A stretch of DNA of 64,000 nucleotides from Deltaproteobacteria bacterium (GCA_040218735.1 JAVJQW010000047.1:64001-128000), one strand, 5' to 3'. Shown: positions 1,852 to 14,619, counted from the stretch's first letter. The notes: a model not told the origin generated them from the letters alone. A program made the numbers and translations.

Positions 1852-2358
1852 ATGCGGGTTCACTTCGGTCTGGGGGCGCTCGCGATCGTCGCAGCGTGCG
1901 GCGGCGCGGACGTGTCGTCCGACGACGACGGCCCCGTCGTGCTGCCGCTGAGCAACTGCGACGACCGCACGGACGTCCCCGACGTCGAGACCACGCAGAT
2001 GGGTCATTTCCGCGACGACGGTTTCCACGCGCTCGAAGACGAGGAGCGCATTCCCGTGGAGTGGGGGCTGCAAGGCGGCACACACGTCGAGATGGACGTT
2101 TCGTTCTACGCCGAGGACGGACGCGCGTGGCGGCACCACTTCGTGCTGGAGCGCGAGGACGGCACGTTCCTGGGGGACGGCATCATCCACGCCGCGAACT
2201 GCGTCCCGGGCTGGACGGCCAACAAACGGAACTTCATCCTCGTCCGAACCTCGACGTCCGGTCCCGCGATTCTCAAACTGTCCACCGAGCTGTGGGAGGA
2301 CGACGCGATGGTGCGCGCGCTGAGCACCGAGCGTTCGATCGTCCTCTACGAGGAGTGA
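1852..2358 (+). CDS. Hypothetical lipoprotein
   Basis: Signal peptide with lipobox VAAC; WGLQGGTH motif; typical codon usage. Confidence 0.7.
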   Translation: MRVHFGLGALAIVAACGGADVSSDDDGPVVLPLSNCDDRTDVPDVETTQMGHFRDDGFHALEDEERIPVEWGLQGGTHVEMDVSFYAEDGRAWRHHFVLEREDGTFLGDGIIHAANCVPGWTANKRNFILVRTSTSGPAILKLSTELWEDDAMVRALSTERSIVLYEE

Positions 2359-2389
2359 GCCCAACTTGTTTGGGCTGCCGGGTCGTGGC

Positions 2390-2758
2390 ATGAGGCCGTT
2401 CATGCACGTTCGTCGATGGTTCGGTTCTGCCGTGGTCGCGGCTCTCCTCGCGAGCTGCAGCGGGCCGGGCGGGTCGGTCGAGGAGTGCATCGGCAGCTAC
2501 TCCGGGACCTACGCGGGCGACGCGTCGGGCACGATCTCGGCGACGCTCGACATGGACCGGGAGCTCGAGGTCTCGCTCGTGTCGAGCGACGGCGACGAGA
2601 CGACCGCGGACTTCACGGTCACGTCGTCGAACACGCTGTCGCGCGATCGCGGACGACTGGATCTGAGCGGGACGTTCGACGAGGGCGCGTGCTCGATCTC
2701 GGGGGACTGGACGCTGTCGAGCGAGTCGGGGACGTACAGCCTCGAGAAGGTCGAGTGA
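2390..2758 (+). CDS. Hypothetical small lipoprotein
   Basis: Lipobox LASC then a Ser/Gly/Thr-rich beta domain; start could be 2390 or 2402. Confidence 0.65.
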   Translation: MRPFMHVRRWFGSAVVAALLASCSGPGGSVEECIGSYSGTYAGDASGTISATLDMDRELEVSLVSSDGDETTADFTVTSSNTLSRDRGRLDLSGTFDEGACSISGDWTLSSESGTYSLEKVE

Positions 2759-2761
2759 GCA

Positions 2762-3809
2762 TCACTTCCTCGCTTCGAGGATGATGTTGAACGGCGTCTC
2801 GGCGGCGCGACGGAACTTCGATGAAGCCGGCGTCTTCGAACACCTCGCGCAGCCGCGCTTCGCCCGCCTGGGCGCCGAGCCCGAGGCCGACCTCCTGCGA
2901 CAGCGAGTTCGGCGTGCAGATGAACGTCGAGCACCCGTAGAAGAGTCGGCCGACCGGGTTCAGGTTGTCGTCGAGTGTGTCGCCCGCGATCGGCTCGACG
3001 AGCAGCACCGCGCCGTCGTCGGCGAGCGCCTGGTGCGCGTGCTTCGCGGCGCCGACCGGATCGCCGAGATCGTGCAGGCAGTCGAAGAAGCAGATCAGAT
3101 CGTAGTCGCTCCCGTCGTAGCTCTTGGCGCTGGCCTCCGCGAAGGTGACTCGGTCCGACACCCCGGCGTCACCCGCGCGCGCCTTCGCCGCTTCGACGGA
3201 GGGCGCGTGGAAGTCGAAGCCGAAGAACTTCGAGCTCGGGAACGCTTCCGCCATGACGATCGTCGACGCGCCGTGCCCGCAGCCGATGTCGGCGACCTTA
3301 CCGCCCGCGCGGAGCTTCGACTCGACGCCATCGAGCGCGGGGAGCCACGCCTGAACGAGGTTGTTCTTGTAGCCGGGGCGGAAGAAGCGTTCGACACCCT
3401 GGAAGAGGCACGGGTGATGCTCCCCCCAGCCAAGCGCGCCGTCACCGCGCATCGCCTTCACGACCTTGTCCTTGTCCATGAACATCGCGGCGAGGGTCCC
3501 GAGGCCGCCCGCGACGAACACCGGAGAGTCTTCGACCGCGAGCGCGAGCGCCTGCTCGGGCGGAAGGCGGAACTTTCCGTCGTCGTGCTCGACGTACCCC
3601 GCGGCGGCCATCGTGGAGAGCCACTCGAGGACGAGGCGTTCGTTGCAACCCGTCTTGCTCGCGAGCTCCTCGGCCGTGACCGGCTCGTTGTCCGCCATGG
3701 CCTTGAACAGCCCGACCTCGTCGCCGACGAGGATACTGGCGACCATAGCGGCGCCTCCCATGTCGGTCACGAGCTTCCCCATGAAGTCCATCAGCTTGCC
3801 TTCGTCCAT
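2762..3809 (-). CDS. Class I SAM-dependent methyltransferase with N-terminal wHTH (Rv2258c-like), apparent 1-bp frameshift near 2822
   Basis: VADIGCGHG motif I, FDCLHD, LGLGAQAG. The expected C-terminus SKFRRAAETPFNIILEARK* (stop 2762-2764) lies in another frame after ...EDAGF. Confidence 0.85.
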
Positions 3810-3939
3810 GGGGTGGGCCGTTAGCTCGGGGCTTGGGGACCGTCAATGTGAGCGGGGCGGTGATACCGACGCGGCGGCGTGCACCTGAGCGCACGTGCGC
3901 GTGATGGTCCGAGCGCGACGAGCATGCAAAAAGACACAC

Positions 3940-4812
3940 GTGGAGATCGACCACGAGGCGCTCGCGTCCGCCATCGCGACGAAGCTCGGTATCGAAGAAA
4001 CGCCGGTGCGGTACAAGACCGGGTCCGTGCCCGTGTTCCGCTTCGGCGAGCGGGTGTTGAAGCTCTTTCGACCGAACGAGGAACGCTACATCGCGACCGA
4101 GCTCGCCGTGCTTCGAAGGCTGCATGGCCGCATCACGATCCCCACTCCCGAGGCCCTCGACACCGGCACGTTCGACGAATGGCACTACCTGCTGATGCGT
4201 CGAGTGGAAGGTGACCCGCTCGACGAGATCTGGTCCGACATCGATCCGCGGAGCCGCGTCGCGCTCATGCGTTCGCTCGGCGAGAGCATGGCGCAGTTCC
4301 ACGCGGTGCCGACCGACGATCTCGACGACGTCGCGAGTGACTGGCCCGCGTTCCTCGCCGAGTACCGACCGACCGTACGCAAGAAGCACCTCGACAAAGG
4401 CCTCGCCGAGCGGTGGGCGGACCAGCTCGATGCGTTCGTCGAACGCTGGTACGTCGAGGACGACCGACGCGCGCTGCTGCACACCGAGGTCATGCGACAG
4501 CACGTCATGGCCCAGCGCGACGCGGACGGCTGGCGACTGTCCGGCATCGTCGACTACGAGCCGTCGATGGTCGCGCCGCCGGACTACGAGCTCGCGTCGG
4601 TCGGCGTCTTCACGACCTGCGGAGAGCCGGGCCTCCTCGCCGCGTACCTCGAAGGCTACGGCACGCCGTGGGATGAATCGTTCCCCAACCGAATCATGGC
4701 GCAAGCCATCTTGCATCGCTACGGGAACCTGAAGTGGTACCTCGAACGCCTCGGCGACGCCGACGGCGCGACGACGCTCGAGGCGCTCGCCGCCGACTGG
4801 TTCAAACCGTAG
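3940..4812 (+). CDS. Aminoglycoside phosphotransferase / choline kinase family protein
   Basis: VLKLF, LLHTEVMRQH (variant Brenner motif), GIVDYEP; probable GTG start at 3940. Confidence 0.8.
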   Translation: MEIDHEALASAIATKLGIEETPVRYKTGSVPVFRFGERVLKLFRPNEERYIATELAVLRRLHGRITIPTPEALDTGTFDEWHYLLMRRVEGDPLDEIWSDIDPRSRVALMRSLGESMAQFHAVPTDDLDDVASDWPAFLAEYRPTVRKKHLDKGLAERWADQLDAFVERWYVEDDRRALLHTEVMRQHVMAQRDADGWRLSGIVDYEPSMVAPPDYELASVGVFTTCGEPGLLAAYLEGYGTPWDESFPNRIMAQAILHRYGNLKWYLERLGDADGATTLEALAADWFKP

Positions 4813-6034
4813 CGGGGCGACGGATCCGTACGAGGCGCTCCGCGGGCGGGATTGGATCCGGAGCGTCGAACGACTCCTCGACGATCTCGAACCGGCCGTG
4901 GTCGAAGGGCCGCCCGGGCGCGCGCGCGACCGGGACGAGGCGCTCACGCCGCCCGAGCTTCGCGAGCTGTCGCGCGCGGTAGTGACAGAACGGATTGTTG
5001 CCGGGGCGCCCGAGAATCGCGTGCGCCGTGAACGTGCAACCTCCCTTGCAAACCTCGGCGAAGTCACAGGTACGGCAGAAGCCGTCGAGGTCATCGACCG
5101 AGCGACGGGTGTTGAAGGTCAGCCGGGTGCTCGCCCAGATCTCGGCCAACGATTCCGTGCGGAGGTTGCCGCCGACGTAGTCCGCGCTCTGCAGGGACGG
5201 ACAGCCCTTCACGTCGCCATTCGACTCGATGCCGAGCACGAACATCCCCGCCTGGCACCCCGACCAGTGATCGCGCCCCGTCGAATCGAGCGAACGGAGC
5301 AACGCCTCCTCCGGCCCGAAGTACCCGAGGTTATTGCCGGGCATGATGCGAACGCCATCTTCGAACGCGCGCGCCTTCAGCGACGCGACGCGCGGCAGGA
5401 CGTCGAGGAGATCCCACGGCTGGAGCAACAGGTCCGGACGATCCGCGGCACGCCCCAGCGGCGCCGTGATCTGAATCTGCCAAGCGACGATCCCCGCGGC
5501 GCGCAGCGCGTCGTAGAGCGGCTCGAGATCGGCGCGGTTGAGGCGATTCACGTTGATGTTGGACGCGACCGTGATCCCCGCGGCGCGCAGCGCACGCAGC
5601 GCCGAAAACGCCGCCGCGTAGGAACCGGGTCGACTCCGCATCCGATCGTGCGTCGCCTCCAGACCATCGATGCTCACCGACACCGAGTGCATCCCGGCCT
5701 CGGCCATCGCCGCAGCGAGCTCGGGCGTGATGCCGAGGCCGCCGGTCGTCATCGTCGGCCGAATACCGGCCTCCGCGAGCGCCGCGACGATGTCCAAGAA
5801 ACCTTCGTGGAGGTAGGCCTCACCGCCGATCAACACGACCTCGCGCGCACCCATCTCGGCGAGCTGCCGAACGACGTCGAGCGCCTCGTCGGTCGTCAGC
5901 TCGCCCTCGCGAGCGCGCATCGCACGCGAGCCGCAGTGCGTGCAGGCGTGGTCACACGCGAGCGTGAGCTCCCAGACCACGTAGGCGGGGTGCCGCTCGC
6001 GGACGACGTTCAATCGGCGGTGAGACACGGCCAT
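4802..6034 (-). CDS. Radical SAM/SPASM peptide maturase, TIGR03913/PlpX (splicease)-like
   Basis: VWELTLACDHACTHCGSRA (CxxxCxxC), GGEAY, GNNLGYFGPEE, WSGCQAG...GIESNGDVKGCPSL, SPASM CRTCDFAEVCKGGC...PGNNPFCHYR. ATG 6034 overlaps the upstream TAA. Confidence 0.9.
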   Translation of the reverse strand: MAVSHRRLNVVRERHPAYVVWELTLACDHACTHCGSRAMRAREGELTTDEALDVVRQLAEMGAREVVLIGGEAYLHEGFLDIVAALAEAGIRPTMTTGGLGITPELAAAMAEAGMHSVSVSIDGLEATHDRMRSRPGSYAAAFSALRALRAAGITVASNINVNRLNRADLEPLYDALRAAGIVAWQIQITAPLGRAADRPDLLLQPWDLLDVLPRVASLKARAFEDGVRIMPGNNLGYFGPEEALLRSLDSTGRDHWSGCQAGMFVLGIESNGDVKGCPSLQSADYVGGNLRTESLAEIWASTRLTFNTRRSVDDLDGFCRTCDFAEVCKGGCTFTAHAILGRPGNNPFCHYRARQLAKLGRRERLVPVARAPGRPFDHGRFEIVEESFDAPDPIPPAERLVRIRRPATV

Positions 6035-6420
6035 TACTCCTTCACGCCGTCGACGCCGTCGCAGTTCTGGTCGACCTCGTCGCCTTCGGGATCGTCGGCC
6101 GTGGGATAGACCATCGGATCCATGTCGGCGCAGTCGTCGGGCGTGCAGAAGCCGTCTTCGTCGAGGTCTTCTTCGCCGTCCGGGCACACCGCCGCGGCGA
6201 CGCAGTACGGATCTTCGGTGTCGTCGGGATCGCAGGGCGGGAGGCCGTAGCAGGCCATCAAGGTCATCGCGAGGAGGCCGCCGGTGCCGAGGCCCATGAC
6301 CCGGCGAGCGAGGCGCGGGAGCACGCGGGAGGCGACCGGCGTCGGCGCGCAGTTCGGGCACGCGGCGAGGTGAACAGGGATGAAGCCGTTGCAGTCGGAG
6401 CAGGAGGAGAGGTTCGTCAT
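6034..6420 (-). CDS. Cys-rich lipoprotein with LMAC-YG motif; putative radical SAM substrate
   Basis: N-terminal CSDC...CPNC, hydrophobic stretch, LMAC|YG (C57-Y58-G59), then a DC..D..VYP.A.D...D.VDQNCDG putative metal-binding motif; TAATG coupling to the rSAM. Confidence 0.8.
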   Translation of the reverse strand: MTNLSSCSDCNGFIPVHLAACPNCAPTPVASRVLPRLARRVMGLGTGGLLAMTLMACYGLPPCDPDDTEDPYCVAAAVCPDGEEDLDEDGFCTPDDCADMDPMVYPTADDPEGDEVDQNCDGVDGVKE

Positions 6421-6433
6421 GCGCGTTGCCCAA

Positions 6434-6449
6434 CGCAACGACCGGGCCA
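6434..6449 (-). promoter_or_regulatory. Putative sigma54 -24/-12 promoter (TGGCCCG-GTCG-TTGCG)
   Basis: GG-N10-GC spacing matches the consensus TGGCACG-N4-TTGC; predicted start about 6423, just before ATG 6420. Confidence 0.6.
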
Positions 6450-6597
6450 ACACCAACGGACGTGCCTCGGCGAGCGCCCAACGGGGCAGCGCTGTCGTAC
6501 AGCGGTGTGCCGTAGATTCACAGCGCTACCGTCGTTCCAGAGACGGACGGATCCGCGGCGTTTGTCGAGGCGCTGCGGCACGCGTTGTTCTAGGCGC

Positions 6598-7506
6598 GTG
6601 ACCTCGACGCGCACCTCGTGGGCCCGCCGCATCGTCCGCGTCCTCCCGTACGTCCTGACCATCGCGGTGATCGCGACGCTCCTGTCGCGGTACGAATGGG
6701 CGTCGATTTCTGCGGCGATCGCGGAGGGGAACGTCGCCGGCCTCTTCCCGATCGCGTTCGTCCAGATGCTCGTGAGTCTGGCGTTGATCAGCGTCGCGGA
6801 CCGCACCGTGCTCGCCGAGCTCTACCCCGCGCCGCGCGTTACGGACGTCGCCATCGCGAAGGCCGCGTCGTCGCTGCTCGACATCCTCGGCTACGCGATC
6901 GGCCACGGCGGGTACGCGCTGTGGATCGCACGCGGGTGCTCCGAACGCCGCGACGGCGTCGGCGCGACGGGCGCCCTGCTCTACCTCATGGCGAGTGACC
7001 TCCTCGGCGTGACGCTCGTCGCGACCGGTGCGCTCGTCCTGACCGACGCCACCGCGCCCGAACCGCTCCGGATCGCGGCGCCGGCCATCGCGGGTGCGCT
7101 CGGCTTCACCTGGATCCTGGGCTGGTTCGGTCGGGGTCGGGGGCCGCGTGTGCTGTGGGCCTGGCGCGTCGTACGCCCCGGCGCGGCCGGGATCCAGCTC
7201 GCGCTCCGCGTGACGCAGATGGTGATGTTCTCGGCGTTCGGGTGCATCGCCGCGCGGTGGTTCGGCATCGACCTGCCCTGGTCGGCGGCGCTGACGTACG
7301 TGCCGATCATCCTCCTGGTCGGCGCGCTGCCCATCAACGTCGCCGGGTTCGGCGCGGTGCAGGCGGCGTGGCTGCTGCTCGTCCCGTGGGCGCCGGCCGA
7401 GCGCATCCTCGCGTTCCAGCTCGTGTGGACCGTGGCGACGACCGCGGCGATCGCGGTCCGCGGGCTCCCCTTCCTCGGACGCTGGACCGCGATGATCGCG
7501 CGCTGA
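6598..7506 (+). CDS. Multi-pass membrane protein, lysylphosphatidylglycerol synthase TM / flippase-like (UPF0104)
   Basis: About 8 hydrophobic segments; LPINVAGFGAVQAAW matches the family P..GxG motif; start approximate. Confidence 0.7.
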   Translation: MTSTRTSWARRIVRVLPYVLTIAVIATLLSRYEWASISAAIAEGNVAGLFPIAFVQMLVSLALISVADRTVLAELYPAPRVTDVAIAKAASSLLDILGYAIGHGGYALWIARGCSERRDGVGATGALLYLMASDLLGVTLVATGALVLTDATAPEPLRIAAPAIAGALGFTWILGWFGRGRGPRVLWAWRVVRPGAAGIQLALRVTQMVMFSAFGCIAARWFGIDLPWSAALTYVPIILLVGALPINVAGFGAVQAAWLLLVPWAPAERILAFQLVWTVATTAAIAVRGLPFLGRWTAMIAR

Positions 7507-7812: not shown

Positions 7813-9261
7813 GTGGGAGTGCGTGCGAGTTCGGCGATGGCCGCGAGCCTCTGGGTGCTCGCGAGCCTCGGCTCCGGGTGCCGCCTCAACCCGGACTGCT
7901 TCGGTGAGAACGAATGTGCCAAGGGCCTCGTCTGCGCCCAAGGCGAGTGCACCCACCCCTCACTGCTGCTACCCGAAGCCGGGGTCGACGGCGAGAACGA
8001 CGGCGGCGGCGGCACCACGACCGCGACGTGGTGCGACGTGGAGCCGATCGTCCTGCGGCGCTGCCTCCCCTGCCACAACAACCCCACGTCCAACGGCGCG
8101 CCGGTCTCCCTCGTCGACTACGCCAACACGCAAATGACCGGCACCGGCGGGCTGCTGACCTACGAGACCATGGCGCTCCGCATGGGATCGTCCGTGAGCC
8201 CCATGCCCCCCGCCGTCGCGCCGCCCGCGACCGCGGAGGAGATCGCGATCGTGCAGGCGTGGGCCGACGCCAACGCGCCCGACTGTGCGAACCGCCCGCG
8301 CGACGCCGGTGTGCCGCGCGACGCAGGTGTCGAACCGCCGCGTGACGCCGGACCGCCACGCGACGCCGGGCCGCCGCGCGACGCGGGACCGATGCGCGAC
8401 GCCGGGCCGATCGACCCGCTCTCCGTGATGGGCAACGCCGCCCAGATCGCGCAGATGCAGTTCCTGGACAACGCCGCGGGCGCCGTCTGGTACCCGACGG
8501 ACCAGGTGATGCTGTTCGCGGATCCTCCGCAGAACCTGATCTTCCAAGCGGCCCCGCCGCTGTTCGAGTTCGCGAACTTCCGCACCGGCTCGATGTCGTC
8601 GAACGGGATGGACATCGACCCGGACGGCAACCTGATCGTCACGGAGCTCACCGGGCGCCGCATCGCGCGCCGCGAGGGCGTCGTCTACACGACCGTCGTC
8701 GACAACTACCAGGGGATGCGTCTCAACTCGCCGAACGACGTCGCGGTCCGGTCGGACGGCGTCATCTACTTCACCGACACGCCGTTCGGGACACCCAACC
8801 CCGCCGACCGCGAGATTCCATTCAATGGCGTCTACAGCTACGTGCCGACGGCCACCACCGCGGCGCTCCGCCTCGAGTACCAGGGTGCGTTCAACGCTTC
8901 GACGCCGACCGGCTGCGAGCTGTCGCCCAACGAGGACATCCTGTACGTCACGGACTTCTCGAACGGCGCGTTCTACACGTTCGACGTGCTCCCCAACGGG
9001 CGCCTCGCCAACCAGCAGACCTTCGCCAACGAGCCGCCCCCGGTGGACGGCCTCGCGGTCGACGCGTTCGGCAACATCTACTTCGGCACGTCGATCGGCG
9101 CCGTGGTCTACACCCCCGAGGGGGTCCGACTCGGCACCGTGCCGGGCGTGAATGGCGGCGTGAACCGTGTCGCGTTCGGCGGCGACGGCTATACGACGAT
9201 GTTCCTGATGTCGAGCACACGCATCTACTCGGTGCGTGTGGAGATCGAAGGCGTTCGCTGA
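7813..9261 (+). CDS. Lipoprotein: c-type heme domain + RDAG linker + SMP-30/gluconolactonase propeller
   Basis: Lipobox GSGC, CLPCH heme motif and SPMPP, (P)PRDAG repeats, SNGMDID, LNSPNDVAVRSDGVIYFTD, DGLAVDAFGNIY. Confidence 0.85.
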   Translation: MGVRASSAMAASLWVLASLGSGCRLNPDCFGENECAKGLVCAQGECTHPSLLLPEAGVDGENDGGGGTTTATWCDVEPIVLRRCLPCHNNPTSNGAPVSLVDYANTQMTGTGGLLTYETMALRMGSSVSPMPPAVAPPATAEEIAIVQAWADANAPDCANRPRDAGVPRDAGVEPPRDAGPPRDAGPPRDAGPMRDAGPIDPLSVMGNAAQIAQMQFLDNAAGAVWYPTDQVMLFADPPQNLIFQAAPPLFEFANFRTGSMSSNGMDIDPDGNLIVTELTGRRIARREGVVYTTVVDNYQGMRLNSPNDVAVRSDGVIYFTDTPFGTPNPADREIPFNGVYSYVPTATTAALRLEYQGAFNASTPTGCELSPNEDILYVTDFSNGAFYTFDVLPNGRLANQQTFANEPPPVDGLAVDAFGNIYFGTSIGAVVYTPEGVRLGTVPGVNGGVNRVAFGGDGYTTMFLMSSTRIYSVRVEIEGVR

Positions 9262-10260: not shown

Positions 10261-11547
10261 ATGATGTTGTCCTTGGTCCTCGGTGCGGCGATCGCCGCGT
10301 CCCCTACGGCCGACCTCTCGAAGATTCAGTGGATGCACGACGACGCGCCCGGCGCGTTCGCGAAGGCGAAGAAGGCGAAGCAGCTCGTCGCCGTCGATGT
10401 GTGGGGGACGTGGTGTCACACGTGCCTGATGATGCAGAACTTCGCGTTGAAGGAGCGGCCGATGGCGAAGGTCGCGAACAAGCTCGTGTTCCTCGCGATG
10501 GAGTACGAGTCGGACAAGAACACCGACTTCTTCGCGAAGTTCCCGATCAACGCGTTCCCGACGTTCCTGGTGATCGACCCGAAGACCGAGAAGGTCGTCG
10601 CGCGCTGGGTGGGGTCCGGGACGTCCGAGCAGATGGCGGAGTTCTTCGCGACCGCGGACCCGAGCGACGATCGACCGTCGGTGCGGGCGCAGCGACTGAT
10701 CGCGAAGCGCAGCTACGCCGAGGCGATCGAGATCCTGGAGGGTGCGCTCGCGAAGGCCTCGGCGACGGAGCGGAACGCGCTCTACCCGCCGTACATCGAG
10801 GCGCTCTGGAAACACGACACGAAGGCCTGCGCGACCAAGGGCGCCGAGCACCTGGATCGATTCGACGATCGCACCGCGGCGGGGATCGATTCTATGCTGC
10901 TGCTCAGCTACTGCGCGACGGCGCTCGAAGATCCCAAGCCGCTCTACGGTCGGCTCGCGAAGCGCCTCGCGACGGTCGCCGCCAAACCTCCGAAGTCCTT
11001 GGAGGCGGACGAGGTCGCGGGAGTGATGCTCGGGCTCGCCGACGTCTACGACGCGCTCGGGGAGAAGAAGAACGGTGACGCCGCCGCGAAGAGGGCCGCG
11101 ACAGTGCTGGAGCAGGCGGCGAAGCGCGCGCCGTCGATCGCGGTGCGCACGACGTACGACTACCACCGGCTCCTCGCGTACGTGCGCCTCGGCCGTCACG
11201 CGGAGGCGCTGAAGATGCTGACCGCGTCCGAGAAAGCGCAGCCGGACGACTTCAACCACCCGCACCGCATCGCGTACCTGTACCTCGAGCTGGGCAAGAC
11301 GAAGGAGGGCCTCGCGGCGATCGATCGTGCGCTGAAGATCGGGTACGGCGGGCGGCGGCTGCGGCTGCACGCGACGAAGATCGATCTGCTCCTGAAGGCG
11401 AACCGCCTGACGGAGGCGCAGGCTCAGGTCGACGCCGCGAAGAAGGAGCTGGCTTCGATGAACCCCGCCAACACACGTCAGGGGTGGATCGACATGCTCG
11501 AGGCGCGCGCGAAGAAGGTCGAAGCGCAGCTCAAAAGCAGGGGATGA
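10261..11547 (+). CDS. Exported thioredoxin-like (WCHTC) + TPR protein
   Basis: Signal peptide, VDVWGTWCHTC, FPTFLVID, followed by helical TPR-like repeats. Confidence 0.8.
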   Translation: MMLSLVLGAAIAASPTADLSKIQWMHDDAPGAFAKAKKAKQLVAVDVWGTWCHTCLMMQNFALKERPMAKVANKLVFLAMEYESDKNTDFFAKFPINAFPTFLVIDPKTEKVVARWVGSGTSEQMAEFFATADPSDDRPSVRAQRLIAKRSYAEAIEILEGALAKASATERNALYPPYIEALWKHDTKACATKGAEHLDRFDDRTAAGIDSMLLLSYCATALEDPKPLYGRLAKRLATVAAKPPKSLEADEVAGVMLGLADVYDALGEKKNGDAAAKRAATVLEQAAKRAPSIAVRTTYDYHRLLAYVRLGRHAEALKMLTASEKAQPDDFNHPHRIAYLYLELGKTKEGLAAIDRALKIGYGGRRLRLHATKIDLLLKANRLTEAQAQVDAAKKELASMNPANTRQGWIDMLEARAKKVEAQLKSRG

Positions 11548-12406
11548 GCCCCTTCTTCGGGAAGTAGTAGCCGAAGACAAAACACATCTCGTCGGCGGCC
11601 GAGGGCCCGTACTCGACGGTGAAGTCGTCGGCGTTGTCGTACGTGCACTCGAAGCGGACGACGTCACCGTTGGTCACGGGGATGGGGTCGTCGAAGAACT
11701 CGACCTCCGGGTCGTCCCAGCGATCGTTCGAATAGACCTGATCGGACTGACCGTCGCGAATCACCTGCGTGGTGGCGAGGACACCGCGCTGGTGAAAGTG
11801 TGATGACATCGAGAGCAGACCGATCGTGTCGCGGATCGTGCAGTCTTTCTGGATGGTGGTGCGTTCGTTGGGCGGGAGCGTGATCTCGAGCGTCGTGAAC
11901 CCGTAGAGGTCGACGTGGGTCCGCGCCGGCGCCTCGGCGGTGTGCAGATTGAGCGCGAACTGCTGCTCGGCCGGCGCGTCGGTCACGTTGATCCAGTGCA
12001 GCTGCATGATGATGAGGGTGTTCGGCGGGAGCGGGAACGCCATCCCGTCCGGGAAGCGGTAGTCGACCGCGCCCGACGAGCCGTCGACGATCGGGCGCGC
12101 GCCCACGAAGAGCTCGAACTCGTCGGGGCACGGACCGAAGCCATCCTCGCGCTCGAGATCCGACATGAAGATGTTGAAGTGGTGCTGCCCGGGGCGCTGG
12201 TTCGTCTGGAAGCGAACGACCTCCAGCTCCTCGGCGTTGTTCATGTTGAGGTGGTAGCAGCGCGTGCGCTCCTGCCCCGCGTCGAGGACGAAGGGCTCGG
12301 AGAGGAGCTGCACCCCGCGCTCGGGGGGTTCGAGCAGGCCGTCGTAGCCGGCGACGCCGCTGCCGCACGCCGACAGGAGGGCGACGGCGAAGATGCTGAC
12401 TCTCAT
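11531..12406 (-). CDS. Copper type II ascorbate-dependent monooxygenase (PHM-like) lipoprotein
   Basis: ATG 12406 MRVSIFAVALLSAC; HH (GQHHFN), QLHW, SHFH and DEMC copper-ligand pattern. Confidence 0.8.
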   Translation of the reverse strand: MRVSIFAVALLSACGSGVAGYDGLLEPPERGVQLLSEPFVLDAGQERTRCYHLNMNNAEELEVVRFQTNQRPGQHHFNIFMSDLEREDGFGPCPDEFELFVGARPIVDGSSGAVDYRFPDGMAFPLPPNTLIIMQLHWINVTDAPAEQQFALNLHTAEAPARTHVDLYGFTTLEITLPPNERTTIQKDCTIRDTIGLLSMSSHFHQRGVLATTQVIRDGQSDQVYSNDRWDDPEVEFFDDPIPVTNGDVVRFECTYDNADDFTVEYGPSAADEMCFVFGYYFPKKGLIPCF

Positions 12407-13162: not shown

Positions 13163-13678
13163 ATGCACGAACGAAGAACACCCCGGCTGATGCGCCACGT
13201 CCGCCTCCGCAAACGCGAGCCCGTCGCCTACGACGGGAAGAAGCGAACGATCTACGAGCTCAACGACGTCGCCGCCGCCATGTTGCGGCTCGCCGACGGC
13301 AAGAACGACGTCGACGTGATCGCCGAGGCGGTCGAGAGCGACGCCGAAACGGTCCGTGCCTTCATGGACGACTGCGCGGCGGCCGAGTTCGTCGAGTGGC
13401 TCGACGGCGACGCCGCGACCTACCGCGTGCCCGAGCTGGAGAAGGGCTTCCGGCTCCGCAGGAACGAGCCGATCGGGTACTCGGGGCAACAGTCGGCGAT
13501 CTTCAAGCTGAACCCGACCGCCTACGAGATCCTGCAGCAGGTCGACGGCGAGCGAGACGAAATGCAGATCGCGATTCGCTGCACGAGCGAGGAACAGGGC
13601 GGCGCCTACCTGGCGACGTGCCGACGGTTCCTGGAGCGCTGCGCTTCGGAAGGGATGGTCCGATGGAAGACCGCCTGA
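13163..13678 (+). CDS. Tandem PqqD-family / RiPP recognition element (RRE) protein
   Basis: Two copies of the PqqD pattern: YELNDVAAAMLRLADGKNDVDVIAEAV..VRAFMDDC and FKLNPTAYEILQQVDGERDEMQIA..CRRFLERCASEGMV. Confidence 0.8.
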   Translation: MHERRTPRLMRHVRLRKREPVAYDGKKRTIYELNDVAAAMLRLADGKNDVDVIAEAVESDAETVRAFMDDCAAAEFVEWLDGDAATYRVPELEKGFRLRRNEPIGYSGQQSAIFKLNPTAYEILQQVDGERDEMQIAIRCTSEEQGGAYLATCRRFLERCASEGMVRWKTA

Positions 13679-14619
13679 ACCTGTACGGCACGCCGCACCG
13701 CCTGCGCGACGACGAGCTGCTCGACGAGCTCACTTCTCCCTACTTCGCGACGTGGTACTGCACACGTCGCTGCAACCTGTCTTGCGCGCACTGCTTCGTC
13801 GACGTCACGTCGGGCGGGCGCGACCCGATCGACACCGAGACCGCGATGCACATGATCGATGGGCTCGTCGAAAACGACGTCTACCAGCTGGGCTTCGCCG
13901 GCGGAGAGCCGTTCCTTCGGCCGGACTTCTACACACTCGCGGCGTACGCGCGGGACCAGGGCCTGACGATCCAGGTCGCGACGAACGGCCTCTTCCTCGG
14001 CGACGAGCCGGTGGAGCGGCTCCTGGACGTGGGCTTTCGGTGCATCCAGATCAGCCTCGATGGCGCGACCGCGGCGAGCCACGACGTGCTGCGCGGCGCC
14101 GGTCGATTCGACGCGGCCCTCGAGGGCGTTCGCGCTGCGGTGCGCAAAGAGCTCCCGGTGGTGCTCGCGATCGCGGTGCACCGCGGGAACCTCGACGAGG
14201 TCGAAGCGATGGTCGACCTCGCGGAGCGCGAGGCGGCGATCATCCTGAAGGTGCAGCCGGTGTTCACGTCCTTCGCGTGGCGCGGCGAGGACGGCGCGCT
14301 GACGCCGGACGAGGTGCGCGACGTGGTCGCGCGGGCGCGTCGGCGAGCCCGGAGCGTAGAGCTGTCGATCCCACGGTGGGCGCAGATCCTCGAGGATCGC
14401 TCCGGCGAGCGCACCTGCGCGTCGACGCTCCGCAACGTGTCGATCCTCGACGACGGCCGGCTCTCCCTGTGTGACTTCGGTCCGGAGCACGCCTTCGGCG
14501 ACGTCACGCGGAACGACTTCTTCGACGAGTGGCGCCAGGTCGTGTCCCAGCACCACCTGCGGCAGCGGTGCGGGTGCACGCGGTACCTCGAAGCGGAACA
14601 GAAGGAGGTGGCGGCATGA
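13663..14619 (+). CDS. Radical SAM protein with truncated SPASM (twitch-like) domain
   Basis: TRRCNLSCAHC, AGGEPF, ATNG, QISLDG; C-terminal C..ILDDGRLSLC and RCGC only; overlaps RRE gene by 16 nt. Confidence 0.9.
   Translation: MEDRLNLYGTPHRLRDDELLDELTSPYFATWYCTRRCNLSCAHCFVDVTSGGRDPIDTETAMHMIDGLVENDVYQLGFAGGEPFLRPDFYTLAAYARDQGLTIQVATNGLFLGDEPVERLLDVGFRCIQISLDGATAASHDVLRGAGRFDAALEGVRAAVRKELPVVLAIAVHRGNLDEVEAMVDLAEREAAIILKVQPVFTSFAWRGEDGALTPDEVRDVVARARRRARSVELSIPRWAQILEDRSGERTCASTLRNVSILDDGRLSLCDFGPEHAFGDVTRNDFFDEWRQVVSQHHLRQRCGCTRYLEAEQKEVAA

Follow-up and report, generated by a model that had tools for sequence, protein, structure and literature searches.

Spliceotides are produced by radical S-adenosylmethionine (rSAM)/SPASM enzymes, which act on X-Y-G motifs of a precursor. 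In this reaction, the tyrosine residue is removed except for its C1, which becomes joined to the C1 of the preceding residue (PMC9811515, PMC11414181). The prototype splicease, PlpX, has been assigned to IPR026482 (PMC11002830), and repeated X-Y-G motifs encoded beside PlpX-like rSAM enzymes constitute the signature which defines spliceotides (PMC10849128). Outside cyanobacteria, binary systems have been described which operate without a Y protein and in which a leader helix binds the enzyme (PMC11414181). The ketoamides formed are protease-directed electrophiles, and the end products of spliceotide pathways in their native hosts are still elusive (PMC9811515). In another group of peptides made by ribosomes and modified after translation (RiPPs), the diacylglycerol (DAG)-RiPPs, modification in the cytosol followed by processing by Lgt, LspA and Lnt has been demonstrated for peptides modified by oxidative enzymes dependent on multinuclear non-heme iron (MNIO enzymes) (PMC13056109). 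The present study concerns a gene pair with features of both groups, located in a 64,000-nucleotide stretch of DNA from a Deltaproteobacteria bacterium (GCA_040218735.1, JAVJQW010000047.1:64001-128000; hereafter the window, with positions counted from its first letter). It encodes an rSAM/SPASM enzyme, named X, and a small partner protein, named A (Table 1).

The C-Y-G motif of A and its conservation

Judged from its sequence, the A-X pair is probably, though far from certainly, a two-gene module for the production of a lipid-anchored protein of the spliceotide type, in which C57-Y58-G59 of A would be spliced in the cytoplasm before export, lipidation and cleavage, leaving an alpha-ketoamide at the N-terminus. 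As the original prediction had stated, the rSAM gene and its 128-residue partner overlap in a TAATG, which is read as translational coupling. The features it had listed for the partner, i.e., a C-x2-C ... C-x2-C N-terminus, a hydrophobic helix, an LMAC-Y-G motif and an Asp/Cys-rich motif, were all recovered, with the C-Y-G codons exactly at the positions it had given. From its N-terminus, A thus comprises a zinc ribbon, proposed to be a cytoplasmic leader or docking module, a signal-peptide-like segment ending in a lipobox-like sequence, Y58-G59, a P-P-C sequence and an Asp/Cys-rich tail. In the AlphaFold2 model (mean pLDDT 83.7, pTM 0.41), residues 4-6 and 13-15 form a beta-hairpin and residues 36-58 a helix. 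The tail scores 22.9 bits against PF11617 (Cu-binding_MopE), for which the gathering score is 27, while 15 of 16 homologues have a precomputed PF11617 match and the Protein Atlas neighbours of A are exclusively unnamed PF11617 clusters.

The conservation of A is concentrated on this N-terminal module. An alignment with the 16 homologues of the protein collection showed that T-L-M-A-C-Y-G is invariant in all 17 sequences. When the alignment was extended to 56 sequences, with a mean column identity of only 18%, the four ribbon cysteines, Y58, G59 and one tail cysteine remained invariant and C57 was conserved in at least 90%. Loss of Y-G from partner homologues is one of the outcomes which the original prediction had named as contradicting it; Y-G is present in 56 of 56. 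The residue preceding it is Cys in 50 homologues, Leu in four and Val in two, and in the six homologues lacking C-Y-G, a cysteine is kept at the lipobox position, 3-6 residues upstream of [L/V]-Y-G. Up to and including this Cys, the last four residues read LMAC in 39 sequences, LSAC in seven and LAAC in five, with MMAC, ANNC, LSNC, VSSC and AVGC found once each, and the core lipobox pattern (PROSITE PS51257) is fitted by 53 of the 56. Ahead of the Cys, the uncharged run has a median length of 17 residues (range 9-24) and is preceded by a median net charge of +2; the mature part following the Cys comprises 36-183 residues. In a crude scan of the window's genome, Y-G occupied positions +2/+3 in a single one of 378 lipobox-like open reading frame (ORF) starts. 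Because the motif is invariant at 18% mean identity and rare genome-wide, the occurrence of Y-G after the lipobox Cys of A is more than chance.

The homologues in which both elements are separated are informative regarding the constraints acting on A. Four enzymes which have only spaced [L/V]-Y-G partners nearby form one nested subclade (support 100/99) among the C-Y-G rows of the enzyme tree described below. Since the Cys and Y-G both survive when split, in a nested subclade, the merged C-Y-G is read as the common state, in which two separate constraints overlap. At one locus (L127), two partner genes are arranged in tandem (1656-1976 and 2197-2523, both on the minus strand) beside a single rSAM gene, one encoding C-Y-G and the other a Cys four residues before L-Y-G. 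The enzyme of L127, with one partner of each form, falls outside the spaced-form subclade, and its locus looks like a snapshot of a transition between the merged and spaced forms. Many Myxococcia homologues, as well as that of a small-genome relative (L017), do without the MopE-type motif at the C-terminus, which marks this motif as dispensable in the sequence comparison. Because conservation within the mature part is confined to its few N-terminal residues, mature A probably functions through its lipidated ketoamide end. Longer or fused proteins containing residues 1-66 of A were not found at E<=0.01 among proteins of 225-2000 residues, which is weak evidence.

The linkage between A and X was examined from both sides. 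A scan with A over one genome per species returned 78 loci, in 26 of which the match begins no later than query residue 6. An X homologue (54-73% identity) is located inside 20 of these 26 loci, either co-directional and downstream or divergent and upstream; in two of the 20, it lies 3.6 kb off at the edge of the locus and in one it is cut by a contig end. The six loci without an X homologue are L025, L028, L029, L030, L031 and L063. Among them, L030 is on the same contig as L039, which holds the pair. An X orthologue (61-68% identity) was found elsewhere in all five genomes tested (those of L021, L025, L028, L029 and L031), whose loci have no X or only an X fragment at their edge. The C-Y-G context is present in 29 of 34 screened loci, the exceptions being L044, L063, L072, L093 and L096. 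Starting from the enzyme, a ribbon-helix-C-Y-G ORF is found no more than 1.5 kb away at 24 of the 30 best rSAM loci under a strict screen, and four more (L120, L122, L125 and L128) have a variant partner under a relaxed one. As for the remaining loci, L100 stops at a contig edge, and L121 has no nearby partner, that of its genome being on another contig. Taken together, these scans indicate that the A-X pair recurs across Myxococcota, either linked or within the same genome. The genera in which the family occurs, as named by the sources, include the cultivable Archangium, Cystobacter and Polyangium. Some Polyangia genomes contain 3-9 copies of splicease-like enzymes. A large expansion is seen in three of them (G301-G303, reached through L025, L029 and L031), with 7-9 splicease-like rSAM matches and 6-8 partner-like ones each, some of the matches having internal stop codons.

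Enzyme X, its relatives and the surroundings of the pair

X combines a radical SAM domain (Pfam Radical_SAM, 93.5 bits) with a SPASM domain (36.4 bits), and no signal peptide is apparent in its translation. In an alignment of 59 rows, the seven SPASM cysteines are invariant or at least 90% conserved. The best profile hidden Markov model (HMM) match is TIGR04103 ("nif11-class peptide radical SAM maturase 3"; 475.7 bits, E 1e-143, profile positions 5-386 of 412; 475.1 bits in the genome-wide profile search), followed by TIGR03913 ("GDL motif peptide-associated"; 400.5 bits, profile positions 17-397 of 477). All further NCBIfam families, including AhbD, NirJ, PqqE, SkfB and the mycofactocin maturase, score at most 165.2 bits. 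IPR026482, the entry of PlpX, presumably corresponds to TIGR04103. By these scores, the splicease family lies nearer to X than does any rSAM family whose known chemistry is a different one. Since its top matches are of the splicease type and yet no cut-off is reached, X is classified as a member of the splicease superfamily in a separate, unnamed Myxococcota branch.

The claim of the original prediction that X matches the splicease family thus holds at the level of the superfamily (475.7 and 400.5 bits versus 165), in which X is placed by its HMM scores and outside of which the prediction would have failed, and does not hold at the level of either equivalog. Its "TIGR03913/PlpX" label blurs two families, PlpX being assigned to IPR026482 (PMC11002830).

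The relatives of X are numerous. Searching solved structures with X gave SkfB, BlsE and PqqE as the nearest matches (E 1e-19 to 1e-12), with no splicease structure among the matches. A profile-free search of 1.84 billion representatives returned 610 proteins at E<=1e-30. HMM scanning of 93 of the 150 listed representatives (57 short or partial ones being left out) showed that the TIGR03913 cut-off is passed by one only (P0148, 771 bits) and that of TIGR04103 by none (top score 550.6). The branch amounts to 6392 proteins at E<=1e-20 among 8000 candidates examined, paralogues included. The best 120 of these are 64-95% identical to X, carry only the generic annotation "radical SAM/SPASM" in their source, and come from Archangium, Cystobacter, Paraliomyxa, Minicystis, Kofleriaceae and Polyangia. 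In a maximum-likelihood tree of 62 rows (X of the window, 47 near-full-length orthologues derived from the loci, two paralogues from the window's genome and 12 chosen representatives), the X orthologues form one clade of 48 rows with a support of 100/99.

The paralogous enzymes provide a further line of evidence, through the precursors encoded beside them. The window's genome contains two further copies of X, on contigs 67 and 59. The contig 67 enzyme (L129, 2911-4269, plus strand) is ~50% identical to X and scores 498.5 bits against TIGR04103. It is translationally coupled to a 227-residue ORF (2231-2914, plus strand) encoding a C-x2-C ... C-x2-C ribbon, a hydrophobic stretch, L-A-T-A-C and four x-Y-G-[L/K]-P-P repeats. 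The contig 59 copy (L130, 2923-4182, minus strand) scores 571.8 bits against TIGR03913, just under its cut-off of 591.75. Its ribbon-bearing tail (profile positions 420-477) is found at about 2690-2950 on the same strand in another frame, which may reflect a frameshift or an error in sequencing, or else a gene that is naturally split. In other genomes, 11 of 15 loci of ~50%-identity paralogues encode repeat X-Y-G precursors, four encoding none. The repeats are R-Y-G-V-I-R-P-P (four or five copies), R-Y-G-L-P-A-P (five), M-Y-G-V-V-V (five), [L/M]-Y-G-[V/I]-F (two) and K-Y-G-L-P-P-P-P-P. Four further paralogue loci, out of four, combine a ribbon, a hydrophobic stretch and a Cys (L-G-A-C in three) with A-Y-G or D-Y-G cores, and the ribbon-lipobox precursors related to A contain one to four further X-Y-G sites. 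Beside the sister enzymes, the residue preceding Y-G is R, M, L, K, A, D, E or H. Several Myxococcota paralogue loci (L131-L134, L135-L139, L142 and L144) encode classic-looking multi-repeat X-Y-G precursors and look like uncharacterised myxobacterial spliceotide families.

These loci also bear on the ribbon, which the original prediction had regarded as a possible leader. Circumstantial support for this role comes from the ribbon-signal module which precedes the X-Y-G cores beside the paralogues, and from the similar ribbon fused to enzymes of the TIGR03913 type, three of which (P0148, P0157 and P0163) carry a C-x2-C ... C-x2-C ribbon in their C-terminal ~60 residues. The ribbon may therefore be a docking module which is located either on the enzyme or on the substrate.

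Table 1. Features of the A-X locus and of its neighbours (window coordinates)
Feature	Position	Strand	Basis or remark
Precursor/partner A, 128 aa	6034-6420	minus	Translation from ATG, homologues, alignments, AlphaFold2 model
Radical SAM/SPASM enzyme X, 410 aa	4802-6034	minus	Translation, NCBIfam and Pfam matches
TAATG, stop of A overlapping start of X	6032-6036	minus	Sequence and reading frames
A: four-Cys zinc ribbon, C7-x2-C10 and C21-x2-C24	6349-6402	minus	Cys invariant in 56/56
A: basic n-region R32-R40 and uncharged h-region V41-A56	6253-6327	minus	Translation, family statistics, AlphaFold2 helix
A: lipobox-like L54-M55-A56-C57	6250-6261	minus	Lipobox core pattern in 53/56 homologues
A: C57-Y58-G59 (codons TGC-TAC-GGC), proposed X-Y-G splice site in which residue X is the lipobox Cys	6244-6252	minus	Y58 and G59 invariant
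A: MopE-type putative metal-binding motif, residues 96-123	6052-6135	minus	Pfam PF11617
X: radical SAM cluster motif C27-x3-C31-x2-C34	5933-5956	minus	C27, C31 and C34 invariant (59-row alignment)
X: SPASM region, Cys 260, 278, 320, 323, 329, 333 and 350	4985-5257	minus	Pfam SPASM, residues 260-324
Methyltransferase with winged helix-turn-helix domain	2622-3809	minus	Flanking; not conserved beside the pair in other genomes
APH-family kinase	3895-4809	plus	Flanking; not conserved beside the pair in other genomes
SMP-30/gluconolactonase-like protein	7813-9258	plus	Flanking; not conserved beside the pair in other genomes
Thioredoxin-tetratricopeptide repeat protein	10261-11544	plus	Flanking; not conserved beside the pair in other genomes
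Cu2_monoox_C-domain protein	11534-12199	minus	Flanking; not conserved beside the pair in other genomes

Regarding gene boundaries, ORFs of 559 and 140 residues are longer open frames which cover the same two genes. A TTG start at 6456, which would add 12 residues to A, is disfavoured, as the homologues begin 4-6 residues before the first Cys, in agreement with the ATG. A downstream start which would remove the ribbon was rejected, the four ribbon cysteines being invariant at the protein level. A Tat signal based on R39-R40 was also rejected, since the twin arginine is not conserved among homologues. Scanning positions 4500-6900 for promoters and terminators found none. Across the compared loci, no neighbouring gene is conserved beyond the pair itself, the APH-like gene being found again in the same genus and at a single further locus only. 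A second, unrelated radical SAM gene is located 7 kb off (13639-14616, plus strand); its product matches Pfam Radical_SAM and Fer4_12, with an AhbD-like family as top NCBIfam match at 120 bits, far under any cut-off.

A candidate maturation route and its alternatives

The following route can be proposed for A. After its synthesis in the cytoplasm, A would be docked on cytoplasmic X by its ribbon and probably also by the helix which follows. X would excise the equivalent of tyramine from Tyr58, converting C57-Y58-G59 into (keto-beta-Cys)-Gly, and the signal-peptide-like segment would then bring spliced A to the Sec system. Lgt would transfer a diacylglycerol to the thiol of Cys57, LspA would cleave between A56 and C57 and thereby shed the ribbon-bearing leader (residues 1-56), and Lnt may acylate the new amine at residue 57. 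The mature product would thus be a secreted lipoprotein of 72 residues, with an electrophilic ketoamide as its first residue held at the membrane surface. The processing enzymes are encoded in the window's genome, in which a profile search identified three copies of lspA, two of lgt and one of lnt, all over the cut-offs. The missing PlpY, pointed out by the original prediction, is no obstacle to this route, as non-cyanobacterial spliceases have been reported without PlpY (PMC11414181).

Several points weigh against this reading. X scores below both equivalog cut-offs (475.7 versus 725 bits for TIGR04103 and 400.5 versus 591.75 for TIGR03913), and its placement relies on HMM scores and the Y-G signature, its relatives in the tree being unnamed proteins labelled by HMM score, with no experimentally validated splicease among the rows. 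No verified precedent of splicing with Cys as the residue preceding Y-G was found in the literature searched, and with a thiol next to where the radical forms, an rSAM/SPASM enzyme might turn to thioether chemistry instead. The scheme requires X to act before A is exported, which is an assumed order. On the side of A, the ribbon extension ahead of the signal-like segment moves the lipobox Cys to residue 57 (in the family, 43-85 with a median of 56), past the usual first ~35 residues, and the lipobox pattern is missed by three of the 56 homologues, two of which have Asn at -1. The uncharged stretch of A extends to C63 and the modelled helix, with 23 residues, is long enough to span a membrane, so that an uncleaved membrane anchor has to be considered. 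Finally, the module is accessory, a match to X (E<=1e-60) being found in 68 of 301 Myxococcota genomes, paralogues counted.

It is in the light of these points that other explanations have to be weighed. SPASM enzymes catalyze many different chemistries. This diversity, along with scores under the TIGR04103 and TIGR03913 cut-offs, would allow X to act on the motif without tyramine excision, for instance by forming a Cys thioether or another crosslink, by epimerisation or by a Tyr C–C crosslink, with the Cys beside the Tyr and a further Cys located within four residues after Y-G in 34 of the 56 homologues as possible crosslink partners. These partners are, however, dispensable in the alignment: invariance is limited to Y and G, with Leu or Val in place of the adjacent Cys in 6 of 56 and the downstream Cys missing in 22. 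In addition, the sister enzymes are paired with repeated X-Y-G motifs with varied residues before Y-G, the published signature of splicease substrates (PMC10849128), and among named families the splicease family and its sibling lead all others by more than 235 bits. Such alternative chemistry is considered unlikely. Splicing could also proceed as proposed on a protein which is not a lipoprotein, its helix being an uncleaved N-in/C-out anchor or an enzyme-binding leader helix and its ribbon staying in the cytoplasm. In favour of this are the Cys at residue 57, beyond where lipoprotein signals usually have it, uncharged V41-C63 and the modelled helix 36-58, which could span the membrane, and the leader helix that binds the enzyme in type II spliceotides (PMC11414181). 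Left unexplained would be the L-[M/S/A]-A-C sequence in 51 of 56 homologues, the fit of 53 of 56 to the lipobox pattern, the retention of the Cys when X-Y-G is shifted 3-6 residues downstream, and the canonical L-G-A-C and L-A-T-A-C boxes of the paralogue precursors, and a non-lipoprotein A is judged improbable.

Two other explanations fare worse. As 50 of the 56 homologues have overlapping splice and processing sites, splicing might block or redirect maturation, with a ketoamide at Cys57 stopping or trapping Lgt, LspA or Lnt and the module acting as a regulator or inhibitor of lipoprotein processing; ketoamides are indeed protease-directed (PMC9811515) and the genome has three copies of lspA. 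Nevertheless, in the spaced variants, 3-6 residues would separate the ketoamide from the Cys and keep it clear of the scissile bond, and the published chemistry (PMC9811515) would leave the amide nitrogen and the thiol of the Cys intact. No gene for a processing enzyme is linked to the pair either, and this role for the module appears very unlikely. Lastly, A could be an ordinary secreted protein with a metal-binding motif, adjacent to X by chance. The MopE-type motif is very common in Myxococcota, where 25 of 61 genomes gave a match, mostly restricted to residues ~62-128. Chance adjacency is nonetheless contradicted by the linkage and co-occurrence data and by the TAATG coupling, as well as by the pattern of conservation, in which the Y-G-bearing N-terminal module is retained and the MopE motif can be lost, and it is hardly credible.

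Returning to the splicing and lipidation of A, the pair suggests a concrete native route for one class of spliceotides, namely splicing, Sec export and processing by Lgt, LspA and Lnt, along with the membrane surface or outer-membrane vesicles as its cellular address. If this is correct, the pair would extend the DAG-RiPP principle from MNIO to radical SAM enzymes, and the backbone would be edited on the very residue recognised by the lipoprotein machinery. This raises the question of the tolerance of Lgt, LspA, Lnt and Lol for an N-terminus which is not an alpha-amino acid. By analogy with other ketoamides, the ketoamide end of A could act as a protease-directed warhead; ketoamides are protease-inhibitor pharmacophores, and a lipid-anchored one in predatory bacteria would be of chemical and ecological interest. 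More speculatively, and with less confidence than for the module itself, myxobacteria may possess triacylated lipoproteins whose first residue is not an alpha-amino acid, for which a ribbon-bearing signal peptide would serve as RiPP leader and signal peptidase II as leader peptidase, yielding an electrophilic warhead borne by membranes or vesicles. On this reading, no spliceotide before A would have had its native maturation and cellular address defined, and the pair would represent the first radical SAM class of DAG-RiPPs.

Comparison with spliceotide and DAG-RiPP systems

Among described systems, the spliceotide systems, i.e., PlpX (type I, with PlpY) and the binary type II systems RhaX/RhaA, RcsX and RasX, are the closest to the pair. 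Their enzymes, like X, are rSAM/SPASM proteins, and the PlpX-type family is the top HMM match of X. As in these systems, A adjoins X and Y-G is strict; the module is binary, without a Y protein, and its paralogues are found beside multi-X-Y-G precursors. X differs in scoring under the TIGR04103 cut-off and in belonging to its own Myxococcota clade. Unlike spliceotide precursors, A has a zinc-ribbon N-terminus and a lipoprotein-type signal instead of a Nif11- or NHLP-type leader, as well as a single splice site, which coincides with the lipobox Cys, the module being known here from sequence.

Two further rSAM families invite comparison. TIGR03913 ("rad_SAM_trio") is the second-best HMM match of X and its sister group in the tree, and its ribbon pattern is similar to that of A. 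In this family, the ribbon is fused to the C-terminus of the enzyme (positions 420-477), whereas X lacks this tail, its match ending at position 397, and the partner peptides differ. TIGR04133 ("rSAM_w_lipo"), against which the original prediction had suggested checking X, also consists of rSAM/SPASM enzymes and its short name points to a lipoprotein partner. It represents a different branch to which X does not belong, with a score of 156.8 bits versus a cut-off of 425.

The DAG-RiPPs (DybA/DybH, NedA and others; PMC13056109) resemble the pair in another respect. Here as there, a cytosolic enzyme without signal peptide is associated with a precursor carrying a signal of the signal peptidase II type and a lipobox. 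Housekeeping Lgt, LspA and Lnt lipidate the DAG-RiPP product and remove its leader (PMC13056109), and A would follow the same route. In DAG-RiPPs, however, the enzyme is an MNIO and the modification is located far from the lipidated Cys (PMC13056109), while X is a radical SAM enzyme, the modification site of A is on the Cys or at most six residues from it, and a zinc ribbon is added before the signal peptide. The class is defined on MNIO enzymes and experimentally shown lipidation (PMC13056109), and the pair fits it in architecture, with an rSAM as its enzyme and a lipidation that is predicted.

The terms "radical SAM", "rSAM" and "splice" do not occur in PMC13056109, and the literature searched contained no link between spliceases or SPASM enzymes and lipoprotein precursors. 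The survey by Scott et al. 2022 (Chem 8:2659), in which the splicease types are defined, was outside this search and may already catalogue the clade. With this uncertainty as to priority, the pair points to an undescribed class of lipid-anchored, backbone-edited proteins. In its architecture, it appears as a hybrid of the spliceotide and DAG-RiPP types, distinguished from both by a splice site which overlaps the lipobox and by its ribbon-extended signal peptide.

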